Assembly (NCBI GenBank): GCA_037143195.1 | Contig: JBAWZD010000004.1 | Span: 1 to 54,955 of the forward strand | Reading direction: 5' to 3' | From: a bacterium | GTDB lineage: Bacteria > Patescibacteriota > Minisyncoccia > Phycocordibacterales > UBA9973 | Length of the DNA: 54,955 bases | Shown: positions 5,668-54,955 of the stretch, piece after piece | Position numbering within the stretch: the stretch's first letter is position 1 | Layout of the letters: every line of letters begins with the position of its first letter | Position numbers and translations under genes: made by a program | The notes under the pieces: generated by a model | What the model was told of the DNA's origin: nothing | Seen by the model: the letters and a program-made list of their open reading frames with translations, nothing else | Database searches by the model: none

Positions 5668-7341
5668 TTAGACAATTTCAGCTTGATAACATTTTTCACA
5701 ATACACACGTTCTGGTCGTTCAGGACTGAAGGCTGTCATGAATGTAGTTTGACAGTGCTCGCTTCCATGTGCATGAGTGTTTTGTTCACACATACAGGTT
5801 CGCTCATAGAGTGTACGCGGGAGACGTTTTTGCATGCGCGTCGCATGTCGACAAAAGAAACACTGCTTCGGGAGGGGAAGACCAAACCGTTTGTAGATAG
5901 ACAGTTCATGATCGATAAATCGGTAGTTACGTTCGCATTTCTCACAGGCAAATATTTTGTCTTTGAGGAACTCAAAATCATAGGTATCTGCTTGGTCAAT
6001 CGTATAATTTTCTTGTCCACGCATCATTGGAATGTCGTCTTTCCAAGGATATCCCTCGGCGAGTGCTTCCTCGCGTGTGAGCGGGTAGTATTCATTCACG
6101 GTTGATTCATTGTATGTGAATGGTGCAAGCTCGATTGGGAAGAACTCACCCCATTCTCCCGTGGAGCGCATGTGCTCAATGATTTTTGGCACAAGAGCTT
6201 CGTATTCCTCTTTTGTGTATTGTTTATTGAGAATACAATAATCTTTTTTGCGGAGTCCAACACAACCAAGCAAGTTGTTTGAATTGAGACAAAATTGCGA
6301 GTATGAGGTCTCGGTACAATCTTGGGCCATGTGACAGGCGATGAGTTTATATGATTGAGAGAATACTGTTTCATAGCAGTGTTCAACATTCGTCGTGAAT
6401 ATTGAGTCATAACTTTCAACGAGCGAACGAACGGTAAAACCGAATTTTCCATTTTCTCCACTTTTAATATCAAAACTCCACTGTATGTTTTTCCCGTTAT
6501 AAATATGATTTCCTGATACGTCTGTATTGTGAGAACCAAACATGTGTGGAGTTGGAACTGTGCGTTTCAATTTTGATTGTTCTTCTCGTATAAATGGAAG
6601 TGTTCTTCGGTTACTGAGTGGATGATCAATCTTAAACTGCTGGTATTCCTCCTTGGAAACCTGTTGGTTAAAAATGTGGTATGACTTGTTGCGCAACCCG
6701 ACACAACCAATACAATTTACACACCCACGACAATCAAAGAGCCCAATTGATTCGGCGCATGCTTCGCACTCTTCGGAGTAGAGGAGATTGTTTGATTCGA
6801 GCACGTCGATACATTCGTAACAATATTCTGATTTGTAGAGGTATGAGCAGTCTGATGATTCTCGTGAATTCCAGATTGCATGACCACCATAATCGCAGTA
6901 TTCACTGTCGACGACACCGAATGCAAAATAGCAATGAGAACTACGATGTGAGACATTGCAGTATCCGCAGTCTGAACTGTTGGTGACCATGAGTGAAGCA
7001 TGAGGTACTTCGTTGAGCAGTTCGTGATATTGCTCGAAGAATGATCGAGAAAAATCGTAGTCTCGTCCGTACTCGATCGCATCCCAATCGTCGGCATACC
7101 ATTCCTCAGTGCTCCACACAGGGAAGGGTTGGTCGGCATGGTACATGCCGATGATTGGTTTTCCAGATTTTGAAGATGTTCGCTTGTAGAGTGTCGTGAA
7201 GTTGCGAATGAACATGCGTCGTTTTTGGCGACACAGTGGGCAGAGCGTAGGTGGAGGTACCTGCATTTTTTCGTAAAACGAAAAATCGTCTGGCACTATC
7301 GTGAATTGATTCGTACATTTTTTGCAGGTTCGGGTTTCCAT
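5668..7341 (-). CDS. Cys-rich zinc-ribbon/repeat protein of unknown function
   Basis: CxxC pairs at both ends and a central S/C-x-x-C repeat tract. Start METRTCKKC at 7341 is preferred because the ORF-track start overlaps the NUDIX gene. Confidence 0.85.
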   Translation of the reverse strand: METRTCKKCTNQFTIVPDDFSFYEKMQVPPPTLCPLCRQKRRMFIRNFTTLYKRTSSKSGKPIIGMYHADQPFPVWSTEEWYADDWDAIEYGRDYDFSRSFFEQYHELLNEVPHASLMVTNSSDCGYCNVSHRSSHCYFAFGVVDSEYCDYGGHAIWNSRESSDCSYLYKSEYCYECIDVLESNNLLYSEECEACAESIGLFDCRGCVNCIGCVGLRNKSYHIFNQQVSKEEYQQFKIDHPLSNRRTLPFIREEQSKLKRTVPTPHMFGSHNTDVSGNHIYNGKNIQWSFDIKSGENGKFGFTVRSLVESYDSIFTTNVEHCYETVFSQSYKLIACHMAQDCTETSYSQFCLNSNNLLGCVGLRKKDYCILNKQYTKEEYEALVPKIIEHMRSTGEWGEFFPIELAPFTYNESTVNEYYPLTREEALAEGYPWKDDIPMMRGQENYTIDQADTYDFEFLKDKIFACEKCERNYRFIDHELSIYKRFGLPLPKQCFFCRHATRMQKRLPRTLYERTCMCEQNTHAHGSEHCQTTFMTAFSPERPERVYCEKCYQAEIV

Positions 7342-44134: not shown

Positions 44135-44373
44135 AGGTGAGCCCATTTTATCATACAAATCGGTTATCCCCAGATACATTTTTTGAATCATTTTTGGGGT
44201 GGGAAAAAGAGAAGGGAAGCATGATTCGGATGGTCCGTGAGTGAAAGGGAAAGTAAAGGCCACGACAAGGACAGAACTCGAGAATTCAAAAGGTCTTGCA
44301 AAAGAAAATCCGTAGCGTATACTGGTGTCCGTTAACGAGAAAAAAACTCGAAAAAATTGTCAAAACAAAAAAC

Positions 44374-45195
44374 ATGGAACAAAAAGACACACAAACCAAT
44401 ACGGATGCTTCTAAAGGACAAAGCTATACACAGCAAGCCCAAAATGACTTCTACCACAAGCATTTGGCAGTGTCCGTTATCGCCAAAAAGACAGAGAAGA
44501 TTACGACGGCGATATATATGGTCACGGACTTCATTCATGAATCAGAGCCACTTCGATCTCAGTTACGGACTCTCGGTCTTGCGCTTGTATCTGGCACACG
44601 CAGAATCGGTGCTCGTTCGACTGAACCACACTACGCACTTGCCGACGAAGTCGTCCGAACTGCTGATGAAATTATTGTGTTCGTGAACCTCGCATCTACC
44701 ATTGGTTTGATCTCAGAAATGAACGGCAAAATTTTGATCAGTGAACTTGAAAAAGTGAAGGCCGAAATCGATCGTCATTATGGTGGCAAGACTGTCCTTT
44801 TCTCAACACATCCAGGCTACGCAAACATCCTCCTTTCGAGCTCAATGTTTGAAGTTGAACCAGCCGAAAAATTGCTTGAAAATTTTGATAAAGGACAATC
44901 TAGTTTTAACGGACAGAATTCAATCAATACAGCACAGGCACCTAGAAAAATTGAATCATCAGAAAGGACAGAAATCGTTCCAAAGAAATCGGACATCGGA
45001 ATGAAAATCGCACGCCGAAATGATGTCCTTAATGTTGTCAGAAGTAAGGGTCGCGTATCGATCAAAGACATCACATCACTGCTCAAAGAGTTGAGCGACA
45101 AGACTATTCAACGTGAGCTTCTCGGACTCGTCAAAGAAGGTGTCCTCATCAAAGAAGGAGAGAAGCGCTGGAGTATGTATCGAGTAGCGTCATAG
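44374..45195 (+). CDS. Four-helix-bundle-like N-domain fused to a C-terminal DeoR-type winged HTH
   Basis: C-terminal VSIKDI...SDKTIQREL..LV.EG...KEGEKRW..Y; the N-terminus resembles the IVS/bAvd-type helical bundle pattern. Confidence 0.8.
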   Translation: MEQKDTQTNTDASKGQSYTQQAQNDFYHKHLAVSVIAKKTEKITTAIYMVTDFIHESEPLRSQLRTLGLALVSGTRRIGARSTEPHYALADEVVRTADEIIVFVNLASTIGLISEMNGKILISELEKVKAEIDRHYGGKTVLFSTHPGYANILLSSSMFEVEPAEKLLENFDKGQSSFNGQNSINTAQAPRKIESSERTEIVPKKSDIGMKIARRNDVLNVVRSKGRVSIKDITSLLKELSDKTIQRELLGLVKEGVLIKEGEKRWSMYRVAS

Positions 45196-45242
45196 CTCGC
45201 ACGAGATTGATTTTTTAGTCAAAATATGAGATAGTAGCTATC

Positions 45243-45306
45243 TAACTGCGACATTAAATAGAGGACGAGCGGAACTTTTGTTTCCCGTTCTTTATTGTCG
45301 CAGTTA
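45243..45306. repeat. 64-nt hairpin
   Basis: TAACTGCGACA/TGTCGCAGTTA outer arm, plus ATAGAGGACG/CGTTCTTTAT and GGAAC/GTTTC inner arms. Confidence 0.8.
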
Positions 45307-45312
45307 TCCACA
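45304..45312 (+). promoter_or_regulatory. DnaA box
   Basis: Exact TTATCCACA, 10 nt upstream of a -35 element. Confidence 0.6.
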
Positions 45313-45322
45313 CGATAAAATT

Positions 45323-45351
45323 TTGCCCTTATACGGGCACAATAATATAAT
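45323..45351 (+). promoter_or_regulatory. Strong sigma70-type promoter
   Basis: TTGCCC-17 nt-TATAAT. Confidence 0.8.
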
Positions 45352-45357
45352 GTGGTT

Positions 45358-45881
45358 ACGCAATATTGTCCGAGCATTCTGTGCGCGGAAGGTATTGCGT
45401 TCAAATCGGTATTTTTCGAAGTGCGGGGCGGAGGATAGGCCTCTCGTCTTTGCATCTCTCGAAGAGTACGCGCGGATGGGTCATTGAAAACAGCATAGCG
45501 TGGAACATATTGAAATGGTCCCACGTACGCGATTGTATTTTGCGAAGCGAGAATTAGAAATAATTCAAACTTTACTTTGTACAGCGCGACTGAATTCAGT
45601 GTCACACTCGCAAAGACTTCTTGGGGAGTGCGATGACGAAACGAGATCACGAAATATTCTTCGTCTCTCATTACAGTCTCGCAAAACTCGGAAGATGCCA
45701 TGTCGACACGGCAGCCGTCTCAACCTCGCACAGTGATGTGTTTGGGGAAGAGACAAAAATGTTTGACGATTAAAAACGTCAAACATATAAAGGTGCACAC
45801 ACAATCAGCATCAAGTATTCGCGCAAGCGGTACTCGAGTCGAGCCGATTATTAAGTGCATTTATTTTATAAACATTCTTCT
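45358..45881 (+). ncRNA. Putative ~520-nt structured 5' leader or ncRNA
   Basis: At least nine consecutive stem-loops, G-U wobbles and two GNRA tetraloops; no convincing ORF. Confidence 0.65.
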
Positions 45882-48800
45882 ATGACTAACGTACTCAAAT
45901 CAAAAATTGCGAAAGCAGGTTTGGGATTGTTGGTTGCAGCAGGTCTTGCAGTAGCTTCAACAGCTGGCGCAATGACACTTGCAGAAGCACAGGCTCTCGT
46001 AGCAGCTCTCGGTCTTACTGGATCGAATGCTCAGATGGTCCTTGCTCTTGCAACTCCTGCAACAACAACCACAACAACTAGTGGCTCATGCTACCAGTTC
46101 ACAAAGACTCTCGCAGTTGGTTCAAAAGGCGCTGACGTGACTGCTCTTCAAACAGCACTCAAGATGTCAAGTGCTACAGGTTACTTCGGTAACGCAACAA
46201 AGGCAGCTGTCATGTCTTACCAGACATCAAACGGCCTCACTGCTGTTGGAATGGTAGGTCCTGCTACTCGCGCAAAGCTCAATGCTTCATGCACAAGTAG
46301 TACAACTACTACAACAACAGACGGTACAACTACTACAACACAGACTGGACCAGTAACAGCTATGCTCGCTACTGACAACCCAGCTGCTGGAACAATCATC
46401 GCTGGATCTGCAGGTGCAGATCTCGCACACGTTACTTTCACAGGTAACGGAACAGTGACATCTCTCATGCTTAAGCGTGGTGGTGTTTCTGATTCAAGCA
46501 CTCTTACGAATGTATACCTCTACGATGGAGCTACTCGCCTCACCGATGGATACACATTCAACAATGCGGGTGTCTTGACGATGAATAACCTCGGCCTCAC
46601 AGTGAATGGTTCAAAGACCGTCGCTATTAAGGCAGACGTCTACTCATTGACAGGTTCTTACTCAGTCAAGGCTATCGTAACTGGCTTCATGGTCTCAGGA
46701 TCAACAACAGCAGTATCGACAAACTTGGTTGGTAATGAAATGTATGTTGCTTCTGGAACAAATGTCCTCGCAACTGCAAACCTTACAACAACAGCTCCTT
46801 CACCAGCTGCGACATCAATCAACGCAGGATCTTTGAACCAGACTCTCTGGTCAAACAATCTTAGTGTTGGTCTCCACGCTTCACAGTTGAAGGGTATGCT
46901 CGTCAAGCAGGTTGGATCTGCTCCAACAAACGCTCTTGCAAACGTAAGTTTGTATGTTGATGGAGTCAAAGCTGGTTCAGCTACAATGAATACAAACAGT
47001 CAGTTTGTATTTGATATGTCAGCTACACCAATGGCTTTGTCTACAGGCAGTCATCTTCTCGAAGTTCGCGGAGATGTTGTTGGTGGTGCAAACCGCAACT
47101 TCTACTTGTCTCTTGAGAAATCTTCAGACCTCGTAGTTGTTGACCCTCAGACATCAAACACTGCTGTTTCTGTCACTTACCTCACTTCAACATTGAACAA
47201 TGTGAACGGTGGTTTGGTGACAATCAACAACGGATCACTTACAGTAAACCAAGACCCAGCATTCAGTAACACAACAACTCTCGTTGGTGGTGCTACAAAT
47301 GTGAAGCTTGCTGCTTGGAAGTTCACTTCGTACGGTGAAGATGTAAAGATTAACAACCTCCACTTCACTCCTACCTTTACTGGTTTGAGTTCTGGTGCCA
47401 CAACACTTGCAAACGTTGGTTTGTATGTGAACGGTGGCCAGGTTGGTTCAAACTTTACAGCAACATCAGGTAGTGATCTCCCATTTGCTAGTCTCGGATC
47501 TAACCTCGTCGTAGCAGCTGGTACACCAGCTACTGTTGAACTTCGTGGAGATATCGTTAGTTCAACTGGAACAGCTATCACTTCAGGTACTGTACATTTT
47601 GATCTCGTTGCGGGATCAAGTAACGCACAGGGAATGAGTTCAAGTCAGTTGACTGCAACTAACTCTTCAGGTGGTCAAACACTTACGATTGGTAACAACG
47701 TTGTGTTTGGTGCAACTGCTGGATTCTCAACTTCTACAAAGGCTCCAAACGCACAACAGGTTAAAATTGGTTCGTTCTCTCTTGCTGCAGGATCTGCTGA
47801 AGGTCTTACTGTAAACAGTATTTCAGTCACACTTCCAAGTGGTGCAAGTAACACTATGGTTGCTGCAAACCAGCTCACTAACCTCACGGTTAAGAATGGT
47901 ACAACAGTGATCGGAACTCCAATTGGAAACCCAGTTGTAACGACTTCGAACACATTCAATACAAGTGGTATGACTGTTGCTCAGGGATCAACACAGGTAT
48001 TTGATGTATACGCTGATTTCGGCTCATCATCAGCTACCGAAACTGTTACCCCTTCGATGTCTATCACATACCGTGGAAACACATCAAACCTTTCTGCTAC
48101 AACATCAACAATTGCTGGTTCTACTACAACAGCAAACGTTGCAGTTATCGTCGCAGCAGGTGTAACATTCAACAACGGTCTCTCTCTTAGTTCACAGGCA
48201 GTTACTGGACCAGCTACAAGCTTCCCAATCGGAACCTTTAACTTCAAGTCCAACAACGCTGTAGCAGGAGCAGTCATCAAGGATGTTACTGTTACTGTCC
48301 CAGCTAACACTGTTACTTCTGTAACTATGAATGGTCAGACCGGAACAGTCGTTGGAACAACTGCAACTATCTACAACGTAGGTGTTACAGTCCCAGCTTC
48401 TTCTGACGGTGTAAACGTTCCAGTTACTGTTGGATTGGTTTGTGTTGGAACAGCAAATGGCTGTAACGCAAACTCCCCAGTTAACGTATTAGTTACAATC
48501 ACTGGTGTTACATACAACAACGGAACTTCTGTTCTTTCAGTCTCTCCAGTAGCAAACAATGCTACAAATACTCACTACATCTACGCTTCGAAGCCTACTC
48601 TTGCAGTAGACACTGTTCAGAAAACAGGTCTCGTGCTTGGTGCTGAGAACAAGGTTGGTGAAGTTACAATCACAGCTGATGCTGCAGGTCAGATCAAGGT
48701 TAACAGCATTGCATTCAATGTTGCGACAACAGGTCTTGCTGGTTCTTCTGTTACAACAAGCGCTACACGAATCGCAGATGGTAACACTACTATTTCTGGT

Positions 48801-49088
48801 TCAAGTGTAGGTTCAGGTTGTAACGTAACTACTGCTGACACCGTTGGTTCTTGTGTCATGACACTCGGAACATCTCCAAGTGGATACACAATCGCAGCGG
48901 GAACATCTAAGACATTTAGTCTTTACATGCGTATTAACGCAACACCTGTCGCAAGTACTGTAGTTTCAGTATCTTCAAGTGTTAGTGCAAGCGGTTTGTC
49001 ATGGGATGACTCAGTTGGCGGTGGTACAAACCAGGATGGTTCACACCTCTACAACTTCCCAACAGGTTCTTACTCAATCCGTCAATAA
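45882..49088 (+). CDS. Large secreted surface protein with PG-binding domain (S-layer candidate)
   Basis: Signal peptide, PG-binding motif (GSKGADVTALQ...TGYFGNATKAAVMSYQ), a T/S/G/V-rich beta-strand body, and strongly skewed codon usage. Confidence 0.9.
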   Translation: MTNVLKSKIAKAGLGLLVAAGLAVASTAGAMTLAEAQALVAALGLTGSNAQMVLALATPATTTTTTSGSCYQFTKTLAVGSKGADVTALQTALKMSSATGYFGNATKAAVMSYQTSNGLTAVGMVGPATRAKLNASCTSSTTTTTTDGTTTTTQTGPVTAMLATDNPAAGTIIAGSAGADLAHVTFTGNGTVTSLMLKRGGVSDSSTLTNVYLYDGATRLTDGYTFNNAGVLTMNNLGLTVNGSKTVAIKADVYSLTGSYSVKAIVTGFMVSGSTTAVSTNLVGNEMYVASGTNVLATANLTTTAPSPAATSINAGSLNQTLWSNNLSVGLHASQLKGMLVKQVGSAPTNALANVSLYVDGVKAGSATMNTNSQFVFDMSATPMALSTGSHLLEVRGDVVGGANRNFYLSLEKSSDLVVVDPQTSNTAVSVTYLTSTLNNVNGGLVTINNGSLTVNQDPAFSNTTTLVGGATNVKLAAWKFTSYGEDVKINNLHFTPTFTGLSSGATTLANVGLYVNGGQVGSNFTATSGSDLPFASLGSNLVVAAGTPATVELRGDIVSSTGTAITSGTVHFDLVAGSSNAQGMSSSQLTATNSSGGQTLTIGNNVVFGATAGFSTSTKAPNAQQVKIGSFSLAAGSAEGLTVNSISVTLPSGASNTMVAANQLTNLTVKNGTTVIGTPIGNPVVTTSNTFNTSGMTVAQGSTQVFDVYADFGSSSATETVTPSMSITYRGNTSNLSATTSTIAGSTTTANVAVIVAAGVTFNNGLSLSSQAVTGPATSFPIGTFNFKSNNAVAGAVIKDVTVTVPANTVTSVTMNGQTGTVVGTTATIYNVGVTVPASSDGVNVPVTVGLVCVGTANGCNANSPVNVLVTITGVTYNNGTSVLSVSPVANNATNTHYIYASKPTLAVDTVQKTGLVLGAENKVGEVTITADAAGQIKVNSIAFNVATTGLAGSSVTTSATRIADGNTTISGSSVGSGCNVTTADTVGSCVMTLGTSPSGYTIAAGTSKTFSLYMRINATPVASTVVSVSSSVSASGLSWDDSVGGGTNQDGSHLYNFPTGSYSIRQ

Positions 49089-49159
49089 TCTTAGGATTAT
49101 TTAAGGTAAGTAGTTTCTGTTAGAGTTTTAGTGAGTTTCTCGAAACTTAAAATCGAAAC

Positions 49160-49189
49160 AAAAAACCACCCCGAAAGGGGTGGTTTTTT
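49160..49189 (+). terminator. Intrinsic terminator
   Basis: AAAAAACCACCCC-GAAA-GGGGTGGTTTTTT. Confidence 0.9.
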
Positions 49190-49219
49190 GTTTGTCTGCG
49201 CTATATACTATAGGCACCT

Positions 49220-51141: not shown

Positions 51142-51146
51142 TCTCG

Positions 51147-51155
51147 TTATCCACA
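51147..51155 (+). promoter_or_regulatory. DnaA box
   Basis: Exact TTATCCACA upstream of TGGTATAAT (51181-51189). Confidence 0.55.
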
Positions 51156-51286
51156 CGGGGCGTGCACTCTAGTGTCCAATTGGTATAATTACAGGGAAGC
51201 AGGAATAAAGGGGTCGAAACCTTTGACAGTGTGCGATTACCAAAATTAGTATGTTTCCGGCTTCTGTCGGAACGATGTAATGTAGT

Positions 51287-51976
51287 ATGAATATTTTTAC
51301 AAGTTGGGGCGATGCATTTACCTATTCTCTCCAGAGTATTTGGGTTAGTTTCATTGATTTTGTTCCACGTTTCCTTTTCGCAGTTGTTGTCTTTGTTATC
51401 GGATGGCTCATTGGTTCCGTTATCGGCAAAGCAATTGATCAGGTCATCTCAGCCCTCAAGGTTGATCGTGCTCTTGAATCAGCCGGTGTTGATAGTGTCA
51501 TGAGTCGCACTGGAATGAAGCTCAATATTGGAGCTTTCATTGGTGGGGTAGTGAAGTGGTTTGTTATCGTTGTATTCCTCGTCGCATCACTTGATATTCT
51601 TCAGCTCACAGCCGTGACTGATTTCCTCAAGACTGATGTTCTTGGATACCTTCCAAACGTTATCGTCGCAGCACTCGTGCTCGTCATCGCAACAATCATC
51701 TCAGACTTCATGGGTAAGGTTGTTATGGCAAGTGCAAAAGCTGGAGGCATTCGCTCAGCAAACTTCCTCGGCACACTTACTCGCTACGCAATTTGGATCT
51801 TCGCATTCATCATTGCGCTTGGTCAGCTTGGTATCGCGACTGCGTACATGCAGATCCTCTTTACTGGTCTCGTAGCAATGCTTGCAATCGCAGGTGGTCT
51901 CGCTTTCGGACTCGGTGGCAAGGAAGCTGCAGCGCAGACACTCGCAAAACTCCACGAACACACAAAGCCAATGTAA
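51287..51976 (+). CDS. Membrane protein with conserved TM-helix repeats (CmpX/MscS-N-like)
   Basis: Two F/Y-x-P-R/N-x-x-x-A repeats and about 5-6 TM segments. Confidence 0.85.
   Translation: MNIFTSWGDAFTYSLQSIWVSFIDFVPRFLFAVVVFVIGWLIGSVIGKAIDQVISALKVDRALESAGVDSVMSRTGMKLNIGAFIGGVVKWFVIVVFLVASLDILQLTAVTDFLKTDVLGYLPNVIVAALVLVIATIISDFMGKVVMASAKAGGIRSANFLGTLTRYAIWIFAFIIALGQLGIATAYMQILFTGLVAMLAIAGGLAFGLGGKEAAAQTLAKLHEHTKPM

Positions 51977-52786: not shown

Positions 52787-54955
<2,169 letters not shown>

Follow-up and report, generated by a model that had tools for sequence, protein, structure and literature searches.

A long structured RNA leader ahead of a surface-protein gene in a patescibacterial genome

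Why should a compact bacterial genome keep several hundred nucleotides of untranslated sequence in front of a single gene? The question is raised by contig JBAWZD010000004.1 of assembly GCA_037143195.1 (Patescibacteriota, UBA9973), analysed here as one stretch of 54,955 nucleotides (the window), in which a 686 nt intergenic gap separates two plus strand genes, one for a winged-helix protein (44296-45195) and one for a putative surface-layer (S-layer) protein (45882-49088). The original prediction, made from the sequence alone, was that 45358-45881 within this gap specifies a densely structured RNA, a candidate new large cis-acting or processed RNA tied to surface-layer expression. This proposal is supported by covariation, by folding energy and by the absence of any Rfam match. 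The fold of the leader is kept through compensating substitutions across 21 loci.

Conservation and fold of the leader

Two routes led to related loci. In species-representative genomes, a scan for the upstream protein returned six loci in which the genes are arranged as in the window around a gap of 700-900 nt, the protein being 95% identical to that of the window in L001 and 50-61% identical in L002-L006. Searching metagenome contigs with the invariant 18-mer TGCCATGTCGACACGGCA gave 30 matches, and in 14 of these a second invariant block, GGAGGATAGGCCTCTC, lies 206-307 nt upstream of the 18-mer. The other 16 are attributed to chance, as every other motif is missing from them and model R1 fails to match; R1 is a covariance model that covers the central domain in its 5' half and scores 136 bits on the window. 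The comparison set is the window plus these 20 loci (6 genomes, 14 metagenome contigs), 21 sequences in all. The relatives are Nomurabacteria and Paceibacterota (Parcubacteria-type members of the Candidate Phyla Radiation, CPR), and several of the third-party assemblies are labelled Saccharibacteria.

The order of helix-turn-helix (HTH) gene, leader and surface-protein gene is the same in each of the 20 related loci, over the length that its contig covers. The winged-helix (HTH) gene lies directly 5' of the leader in 6/6 genome loci and in the 8/8 metagenome loci with enough sequence, and a surface-protein homologue starting M(T/S)N.LKSKIAKAGLGL stands behind every leader with enough downstream sequence. 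In the 14 metagenome loci, where the contig reaches, the same promoter is present upstream and an open reading frame (ORF) of ~1050-1250 aa with this beginning downstream.

Among the genome loci the gap aligns at ~70% nucleotide identity and contains several invariant blocks, which seems higher than expected for non-coding DNA with flanking proteins at 50-61%. Relative to L001 the leader is 97.7% identical in nucleotide sequence, compared with 90.8% for the HTH coding sequence (CDS), 89.8% for the next gene upstream, 95.6% for rplJ and 81.6% for the first 758 nt of the surface-protein gene, the remainder of which is unalignable as DNA and 47% identical as protein. The leader is thus the best-conserved segment of this neighbourhood and stands ahead of a hypervariable gene.

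A more distant relative is seen in L007, with a winged-helix protein that is only 32% identical. Model R1 matches it over its full length and in the expected place (18 bits, E 0.055). A diverged leader core is present at 7016-7140 and ~7190-7215 of this locus, with an exact CATTGAAAA, a hairpin GGCCCTGTCGACAAGGC that keeps GUCGAC, and CAUUGAAAA. Since L007 retains the R1 match, CAUUGAAAA and the GUCGAC-loop hairpin, the leader family is probably broader than the 21 sequences. There is no second copy of the leader within the window.

The plus strand of 45358-45881 has a minimum free energy (MFE) of -184.3 kcal/mol, compared with -139.2 +/- 5.1 for dinucleotide shuffles (z -8.8; no shuffle in 100 reaches it). 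Structure in the reverse complement is clearly weaker (z -5.3), which is to be expected where G-U pairs matter. A longer RNA, 45243-45900, folds at -234.2 kcal/mol, also with z -8.8, and the same architecture is seen in independent MFE folds of most of the homologues shown. From 5' to 3' the leader comprises P1, a central domain of ~300 nt, the GUCGAC-loop hairpin, a variable stretch, P12, the P13 3' domain and an open AU-rich stretch, with the following components.

45358-45400, plus strand: P1, hairpin ACGCAAUAU.../...GUAUUGCGU starting at the predicted +1 of the main promoter
45408-45699, plus strand: central multi-helix domain, ~290 nt, closed by the long-range helices P2 and P3
45408-45419 with 45688-45699, plus strand: P2, long-range closing helix, GGUAUUUUUCGA with UCGGAAGAUGCC
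45422-45429 with 45676-45683, plus strand: P3, long-range closing helix, UGCGGGGC with GUCUCGCA
45425-45446, plus strand: P4, invariant block GGGGCGGAGGAUAGGCCUCUCG, a hairpin with loop AUAGG
45444-45467 with 45616-45639, plus strand: P5, long irregular helix inside the central domain
45472-45488 with 45595-45611, plus strand: P6, long irregular helix that includes the invariant CAUUGAAAA
45498-45526, plus strand: P7, hairpin GCGUGG...CCACGU
Inside the central domain beyond P7, plus strand: variable insert, differing among relatives
45643-45669, plus strand: P9, hairpin inside the central domain
45696-45713, plus strand: GUCGAC-loop hairpin, invariant UGCC-AUGUCGACAC-GGCA with the palindrome GUCGAC in its loop
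45759-45786, plus strand: P12, hairpin AUGUUUGACG/CGUCAAACAU
45793-45860, plus strand: P13 3' domain, GUGCAC/GUGCAU around AAUCAGC/GCCGAUU, plus an optional GNRA-capped hairpin CGC-GCAA-GCG
45861-45896, plus strand: linker and start, AU-rich, purine-poor and without a Shine-Dalgarno sequence; start codon at 45882, conserved first codons UUCUAUGACUAAC

Applied to the 21-sequence alignment, RNAalifold returns 56 pairs, 23 of them with compensatory changes. When the window's own fold is projected onto the alignment, 76.1% of cells are standard pairs, compared with 38-46% when partners are slid by 1-3 columns; this and the other percentages of paired cells are flattered by taking the structure from one member, which does not affect the compensatory counts or the independent folds. 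The covariation score is 0.206 for the projected fold and 0.065-0.090 for the slid partners, and none of 500 column shuffles reaches any of five measures. Thirteen differences separate the window from L001 at 45350-45893, of which six form three compensatory pairs, two keep a wobble, two break pairs and three are unpaired. Covariation is therefore present both in the alignment and in this close pair, and folding is far better than that of the shuffles, both as the original prediction would have them. The compensatory pairs, which include many G-U pairs (A-C on the other strand), and the strand asymmetry in folding energy argue for selection on the plus strand RNA.

The individual helices differ in how they are conserved. 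P1 forms in all 21 sequences folded alone (-17.8 to -27.2 kcal/mol; for L026, P1 is seen in the full-length fold), which bears out the predicted helix ACGCAATAT/GTATTGCGT; its inner helix is CCGAGCAU/GUGCGCGG in the window and CGUGCAC/GUGCACG in most relatives, and the outer-stem sequences differ. P2 and P3 are 94-95% paired over the 21 sequences and are mostly invariant, with a GC/AU/GU exchange at column pair 91:407. All pairs of P4 are kept, and GGAGGATAGGCCTCTC is exact in 6/6 genome loci, which were found via the neighbouring protein and so are unselected for the block, and has 0-2 changes in the 14 metagenome loci. The G-U-rich hairpin originally drawn here survives as its invariant tip, GCGGAGG-AUAGG-CCUCUCG, whereas its UGCGGGGC pairs instead over long range in P3.

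Within the central domain P5 and P6 are 73-79% paired, and a hairpin previously proposed from bases that join these long-range helices, GTCA-CACTC/GAGTG-TGAC, is not retained, being paired in 60% of cells and matched by 244/500 shuffles. Pairing of CAUUGAAAA with the start region UUUUCUAUG was also considered and rejected; its better-supported partner is the internal UUCAGUG of P6, and the start region is predicted to be open. P7, anticipated as CGTGG/CCACG, is paired in 96.8% of cells, and 5/6 of its pairs are changed on both sides, such as CG to UA in nine sequences. The hairpin GAATTA-GAAA-TAATTC lies in a variable region, where it shows two compensatory double changes relative to L001.

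The GUCGAC-loop hairpin, foreseen as TGCC/GGCA, is exact in the 6/6 genome loci found through the protein; its invariance in the metagenome loci is by construction, because it served as the search key. Its 5' arm competes with the base of P2, such that the GAUGCC pairing and UGCC/GGCA are mutually exclusive. The inner six pairs of P12 are 89.7% paired and all six show compensatory changes, one differing even from L001; they are the part of the proposed ATGTTTGACG/CGTCAAACAT helix that is kept. The two helices of P13 are paired in 97.5% and 100% of cells with 4/6 pairs compensatory in each, so that the TGCAC/GTGCA domain with its nested helix is found and is kept in relatives, and the inner GNRA-capped hairpin is present in only some homologues. 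The last leader helix ends 21 nt ahead of the ATG at 45882. Overall the dense structure proposed for 45358-45881 stands, with most of its listed helices, and is revised in its start point, in one helix and in the 3' untranslated region (UTR).

Promoters, transcript and neighbouring genes

The signals that bound the transcript are as follows.

45207-45235, plus strand: Pup, upstream promoter, with -35 TTGATT (45207-45212), a 17 nt spacer and extended -10 TG-A-GATAGT (45227-45235)
45243-45306, plus strand: P0, 5'-terminal hairpin of the long transcript, closed by the helix UAACUGCGACA/UGUCGCAGUUA, whose final GUUAU is also the first half of the TTATCCACA box
45304-45312, plus strand: TTATCCACA box, matching the consensus DnaA box exactly, 10 nt 5' of the main -35 (8-10 nt across loci)
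45323-45351, plus strand: main (inner) promoter, with -35 TTGCCC, a 17 nt spacer and -10 TATAAT; predicted +1 at 45358
49162-49190, plus strand: intrinsic terminator AAAAAACCACCCC-GAAA-GGGGUGGUUUUUU, read directly in the sequence

The main promoter, which the original prediction had recognized, looks to be real. It is the best sigma-70-like match in the scanned region (10/12, tied with one minus strand site), its -10 is TATAAT in 19/21 sequences and TATACT in 2/21, and its -35 and spacing are conserved. The Pup pattern TTGnnn-N14/15-TGn-nAnnnT is in the same place in 16/18 loci with upstream sequence, and in each of these 16 strong structure (z -3.9 to -7.9) begins 5-9 nt past the outer -10. 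A single P0 hairpin closing on GUUAU accounts for it in 13 cases, and the closing pairs covary (CUGCGACA/UGUCGCAG, CCGCGAAG/CUUCGCGG, AACCCAA/UUGGGUU and CUUUCGAU/AUCGAAGG). Because Pup-P0 and main promoter-P1 are both conserved, we read the locus as two tandem promoters, each at once giving a stable hairpin. A further RNA hairpin across the inner promoter (Pa) was set aside, its consensus energy being just -3.5 kcal/mol with a single compensatory pair; it is possible, if weakly supported.

The TTATCCACA box is invariant in every locus reaching it and, over 158 kb from related loci, each locus has a single copy, which is always at the main promoter; the window has two copies, against 0.45 expected. 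The second, an exact GTTATCCACAC at 51146-51189, is 27 nt upstream of the extended -10 promoter TGGTATAAT and precedes a gene for a 229-aa multi-pass membrane protein (51287-51976), with a spacing to the -10 that is 5 nt shorter than at the surface-protein promoter. In two other loci (L008 6779-6825 and L009 6848-6895), with winged-helix proteins 28-29% identical to that of the window, the box and a sigma-70-type promoter are kept before the surface-protein gene and the leaders are shorter and non-homologous. The box is thus more widely distributed than the leader RNA.

The region is represented in three metatranscriptomes of the sample from which the window's DNA also comes. X2, the deepest of them, has a single RNA contig of 3882 nt (45254-49135, mean depth 39.8) that carries the leader and the gene together; the winged-helix gene is without coverage, rplJ/rplL are at 1-2.5 and other genes within 26 kb at 0-3, and the 20 kb ahead of the leader yields only four 150-220 nt fragments at depth 2-3. 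A contig from a second run (45651-45904) crosses the leader/CDS junction. With contigs spanning or crossing this junction in two runs, leader and gene share one RNA, and the surface-protein mRNA appears to be the organism's most abundant in the sampled community. A transcription start close to the ATG, which would have spoken against a leader, does not agree with contigs that cover the whole leader joined to the CDS, a somewhat weaker point in that it draws on assembled contigs.

The X2 contig starts at 45254, and identical or near-identical contigs in two unrelated 2025 metatranscriptomes start at 45253 and 45256, ~100 nt 5' of the predicted +1 at 45358. Single contig starts are weak evidence, because 151 nt contigs of the 2025 metatranscriptomes start at scattered positions, but three starts falling together at 45253-45256, with nothing covered further upstream, point to initiation between 45196 and 45254. 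Standard RNA-seq drops roughly the first ten nucleotides of transcripts, so a start near 45243 is compatible with contigs from 45254. Both start positions are predicted or inferred from contig ends. The proposed start at 45358 is supported by a conserved promoter with P1 at its +1, and is joined by a longer RNA from ~45243-45254 with its own promoter and covarying hairpin; the leader measures ~530 nt if transcription starts at the inner promoter and ~640 nt if it starts at the outer. At the other end the RNA contigs stop at 49122-49144, and what had been described as nested pairing in the 3' UTR is simply an intrinsic terminator (49162-49190).

Fragments 98-100% identical to 45253-45880 are also found in 2025 metatranscriptomes of separate studies that are labelled permafrost, peat, bioreactor and freshwater (X9, X19, X20, X24 and X25). 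This organism, or close kin of it, may be cosmopolitan, or else the fragments reflect library carry-over. For a second species, L023, a search of RNA runs gave no usable data.

The two genes that flank the leader are:

44296-45195, plus strand: winged-helix gene, conserved upstream neighbour of the leader and candidate regulator, ~275-299 aa with a C-terminal BlaI/DeoR-like DNA-binding domain
45882-49088, plus strand: surface-protein gene, 1068 aa, with a signal/anchor segment, one PG_binding_1 domain, Thr-rich linkers and a beta-rich body of ~900 aa

The winged-helix protein and its alignment give weak winged-helix matches only (BlaI/DeoR/PaaX-type) in PDB and Pfam, among them HTH_DeoR and Penicillinase_R in 8-10/13 homologues and PDB 1p6r. 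Its N-terminal part is helical with a marginal four-helix-bundle similarity (PDB 2gsc, E 0.16; Pfam bAvd in 1/13 homologues), and a bAvd/IVS-like identity, which has marginal support at best, was rejected. Just past its stop codon, at 45198-45217, a small hairpin CTCGCACGAG followed by ATTGATTTTTT overlaps the outer -35 and could be a weak terminator. A 160-aa minus strand ORF (45219-45701) was rejected as a gene, having no Pfam match and not being kept in relatives.

In the 1068-aa surface protein Pfam reports PG_binding_1 (E 9e-10) and no SLH or other known S-layer domain. Between the window and L001 the body of its gene (window 46640-49130, L001 8352-11894) is unalignable as DNA and ~1 kb longer in L001, with flanks that are 90-98% identical; this looks like diversifying selection or antigen cassette replacement with breakpoints inside the gene and at the terminator.

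Possible roles of the leader

The reading we favour, with a probability of roughly 0.55, is that this is an uncatalogued and unusually large structured 5' leader that stabilises the dominant mRNA, permits translation independent of a Shine-Dalgarno sequence and probably binds a conserved factor. The tandem promoters would each begin a transcript with a stable hairpin, P0 or P1, shielding the 5' end from 5'-end-dependent RNases, and the compact central and 3' domains would keep the long untranslated stretch resistant to endonucleases. A single-stranded AU-rich landing site of 20-25 nt would be left open together with the start codon, which may permit Shine-Dalgarno-independent initiation in an otherwise mostly leaderless genome. 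The invariant loop and junction blocks (GGAGGAUAGGCC, CAUUGAAAA and CUCGGAAGAUGCCAUGUCGACACGGCA) would most likely be binding sites for a conserved protein that adjusts stability or translation; the first candidate is the always-adjacent winged-helix protein, which may also, or instead, bind the TTATCCACA promoter box.

The start region has the features that such initiation would use. The 20-25 nt ahead of the AUG are AU-rich and conserved in sequence, and the mean unpaired probability from -20 to +12 is 0.42-0.72, versus 0.28-0.35 in the rest of the leader (19 homologues). Start-site contexts in the window fit the earlier view of a genome that is often leaderless and without Shine-Dalgarno sequences: a Shine-Dalgarno-like motif precedes only ~3/39 long ORFs, and a TATAAT-like hexamer stands 7-12 nt before the ATG of many genes (25309, 27147, 31788 and 32823, for example), which suggests that leaderless mRNAs are widespread.

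Several points weigh against this reading. The function of the leader is something we infer, and the S-layer identity of the surface protein likewise derives from its composition, its PG-binding domain and its expression level. The 21 sequences also depend on how they were collected, the metagenome loci by an exact 18-mer and the genome loci by their HTH protein. The RNA evidence consists of assembled contigs that carry neither local depth nor true 5' ends, so relative promoter use cannot be judged from it and cleavage into a separate stable RNA is possible. Stabilisation alone under-explains the conservation, because a stabiliser needs neither 400-630 nt nor invariant blocks of 17-40 bases, and known S-layer leaders are ~5 times shorter.

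This surplus of size and conservation is where a different role may be sought. The central domain could be a sensor, riboswitch-like or responsive to protein, in which a metabolite such as an envelope precursor, or unexported surface protein or a chaperone, exerts feedback control on the surface-protein gene at the level of translation, RNA decay or transcription elongation. Invariant nucleotides do cluster in the loops and junctions of a closed, conserved and covarying multi-helix domain, and the mutually exclusive pairing of the P2 base and the next invariant hairpin is what a switch might use; covariation cannot test this alternative pairing, because only invariant bases are involved, which itself counts against a sensor. 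However, the domain is far larger than known aptamers, and there is no sign of an expression platform: no terminator-like site or antiterminator is found on the plus strand from the promoters to the ATG (45196-45881), and the start region is predicted to be open in 19/19 homologues examined. No conserved upstream ORF is present in six sequences examined; candidates from the conserved AUGs in AAGAUGCCAUGUCGAC are 10-64 codons long with inconsistent ends, L006 lacks the first AUG, and the overlap of one stop with the main ATG in the window is coincidence. With no switch or expression platform found, a regulatory role is unproven, and we regard a sensor as possible and doubtful.

It is unlikely that the RNA is a separate or processed non-coding RNA that acts in trans or structurally, in the manner of OLE, ROOL or GOLLD, with its GUCGAC loop perhaps serving self-association and the promoter merely shared. 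Its length of at least 500 nt, its ornate conserved structure, its lack of a known family, the conserved 6 nt palindrome in a hairpin loop and the much better preservation of the leader than of the gene behind it would all suit such an RNA. Yet it is strictly 5' of one gene family in 20/20 loci, no terminator follows it, RNA contigs continue into the CDS in two runs, and conserved structure stops only 21 nt short of the start codon. On balance a co-transcribed leader is favoured.

Conservation might instead act on the DNA, preserving promoter and operator sites (TTATCCACA and the TGTCGACA palindrome) and a homology anchor for swapping the hypervariable gene body. In Campylobacter fetus, conserved 5' regions of the sap genes serve as recombination anchors. 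The replaced or hyper-diverged gene body between closely similar flanks, the persistence of TTATCCACA and a promoter where the leader is non-homologous, and the near-palindromic GCCATGTCGACACGGC are consistent with this. We consider it very improbable as the explanation of the leader, as the compensatory substitutions, G-U pairs and strand asymmetry of folding point to plus strand RNA, an anchor leaves conservation between species with 50%-identical flanking proteins unexplained, and the window has no second leader copy. Chance or neutral intergenic sequence can practically be dismissed: long AU-rich sequences always yield some predicted structure, but not a z of -8.8 combined with covariation, better conservation than rplJ and a very high level of expression.

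Known systems and significance

No known RNA class is recognized, as the original prediction had it. In searches of Rfam 15, which covered RNase P, tmRNA, 6S, SRP, riboswitch and T-box models, the window at gathering threshold gives only the 23S rRNA at 52787, the region 45100-46000 at E<=10 gives only noise (15-18 bits, miRNA/snoRNA models), and the 20 related loci (121 kb) give no match. A literature search found no paper on structured RNA of this kind in CPR/Patescibacteria.

The nearest functional parallels are leaders of other abundant envelope-protein mRNAs. In Lactobacillaceae slpA is transcribed from two promoters, and its mRNA, with a half-life of ~15 min, is stabilised by a 5'-UTR stem-loop that keeps the ribosome-binding site exposed (PMC10221546). 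The slpA leaders of Lactobacillus acidophilus and L. brevis and the leader described here share a very highly expressed surface-layer-type gene, two tandem promoters, a stem-loop at the 5' end and an exposed start, and presumably a role in mRNA stability and efficient translation. The present leader differs in being several times longer (400-640 nt), with a multi-domain fold, long-range closing helices and invariant blocks across species, and in having no Shine-Dalgarno sequence, belonging to CPR bacteria and being unrelated in sequence. In Escherichia coli, the abundant ompA mRNA, which encodes an envelope protein, is guarded from 5'-end-dependent decay by a hairpin that lies only a few nucleotides from the start of its 5' UTR. 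That leader is ~130 nt with two hairpins and a Shine-Dalgarno site, whereas the present one has at least 13 helices and a start without such a site.

In size the leader resembles OLE, GOLLD, ROOL, HEARO and raiA (PMC12286853), which likewise exceed 400 nt, have complex covarying structure and were found by comparative genomics of uncultured or environmental bacteria. Those are free-standing genes, whereas this RNA is fused to an mRNA, is linked to one gene family and matches none of the covariance models. Riboswitches, T-boxes and ribosomal-protein leaders are alike in being conserved structured elements in the 5' UTR of the gene they presumably serve, but are much smaller in their aptamers and have the terminator/antiterminator or start-sequestering alternative that is not found here. 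The promoter-proximal 9-mer TTATCCACA is an exact consensus DnaA box and is invariant across the clade; unlike origin boxes it is a single copy 8-10 nt before a -35, with no origin cluster, and its first half is also in the P0 helix. DnaA, the adjacent winged-helix protein or another factor are candidates for binding it.

A tentative extension of these comparisons is that the leader represents a new Paceibacteria/CPR-specific class of large ornate RNA, a defined three-dimensional object that possibly dimerises via the GUCGAC loop and acts as a sensor or assembly platform, coupling surface-protein synthesis to envelope state or, through the TTATCCACA/DnaA-type box, to the cell cycle. If so, it would be a regulatory RNA machine and no passive stabiliser.

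Bacterial RNAs longer than ~400 nt with conserved covarying structure are rare, and OLE, GOLLD, ROOL and raiA have each opened a research line of their own. The leader offers a compact, sequence-defined target for structure work (SHAPE, cryo-EM) and a conserved marker for the major surface-protein gene in Paceibacteria genomes. It is tied to what is apparently the most abundant mRNA of these ultra-small cells, and is better kept than rplJ in the comparison with L001 while the protein encoded downstream is hypervariable. It could thus show how very high expression is reached from a long leader in an organism that is otherwise mostly leaderless and free of Shine-Dalgarno sequences.

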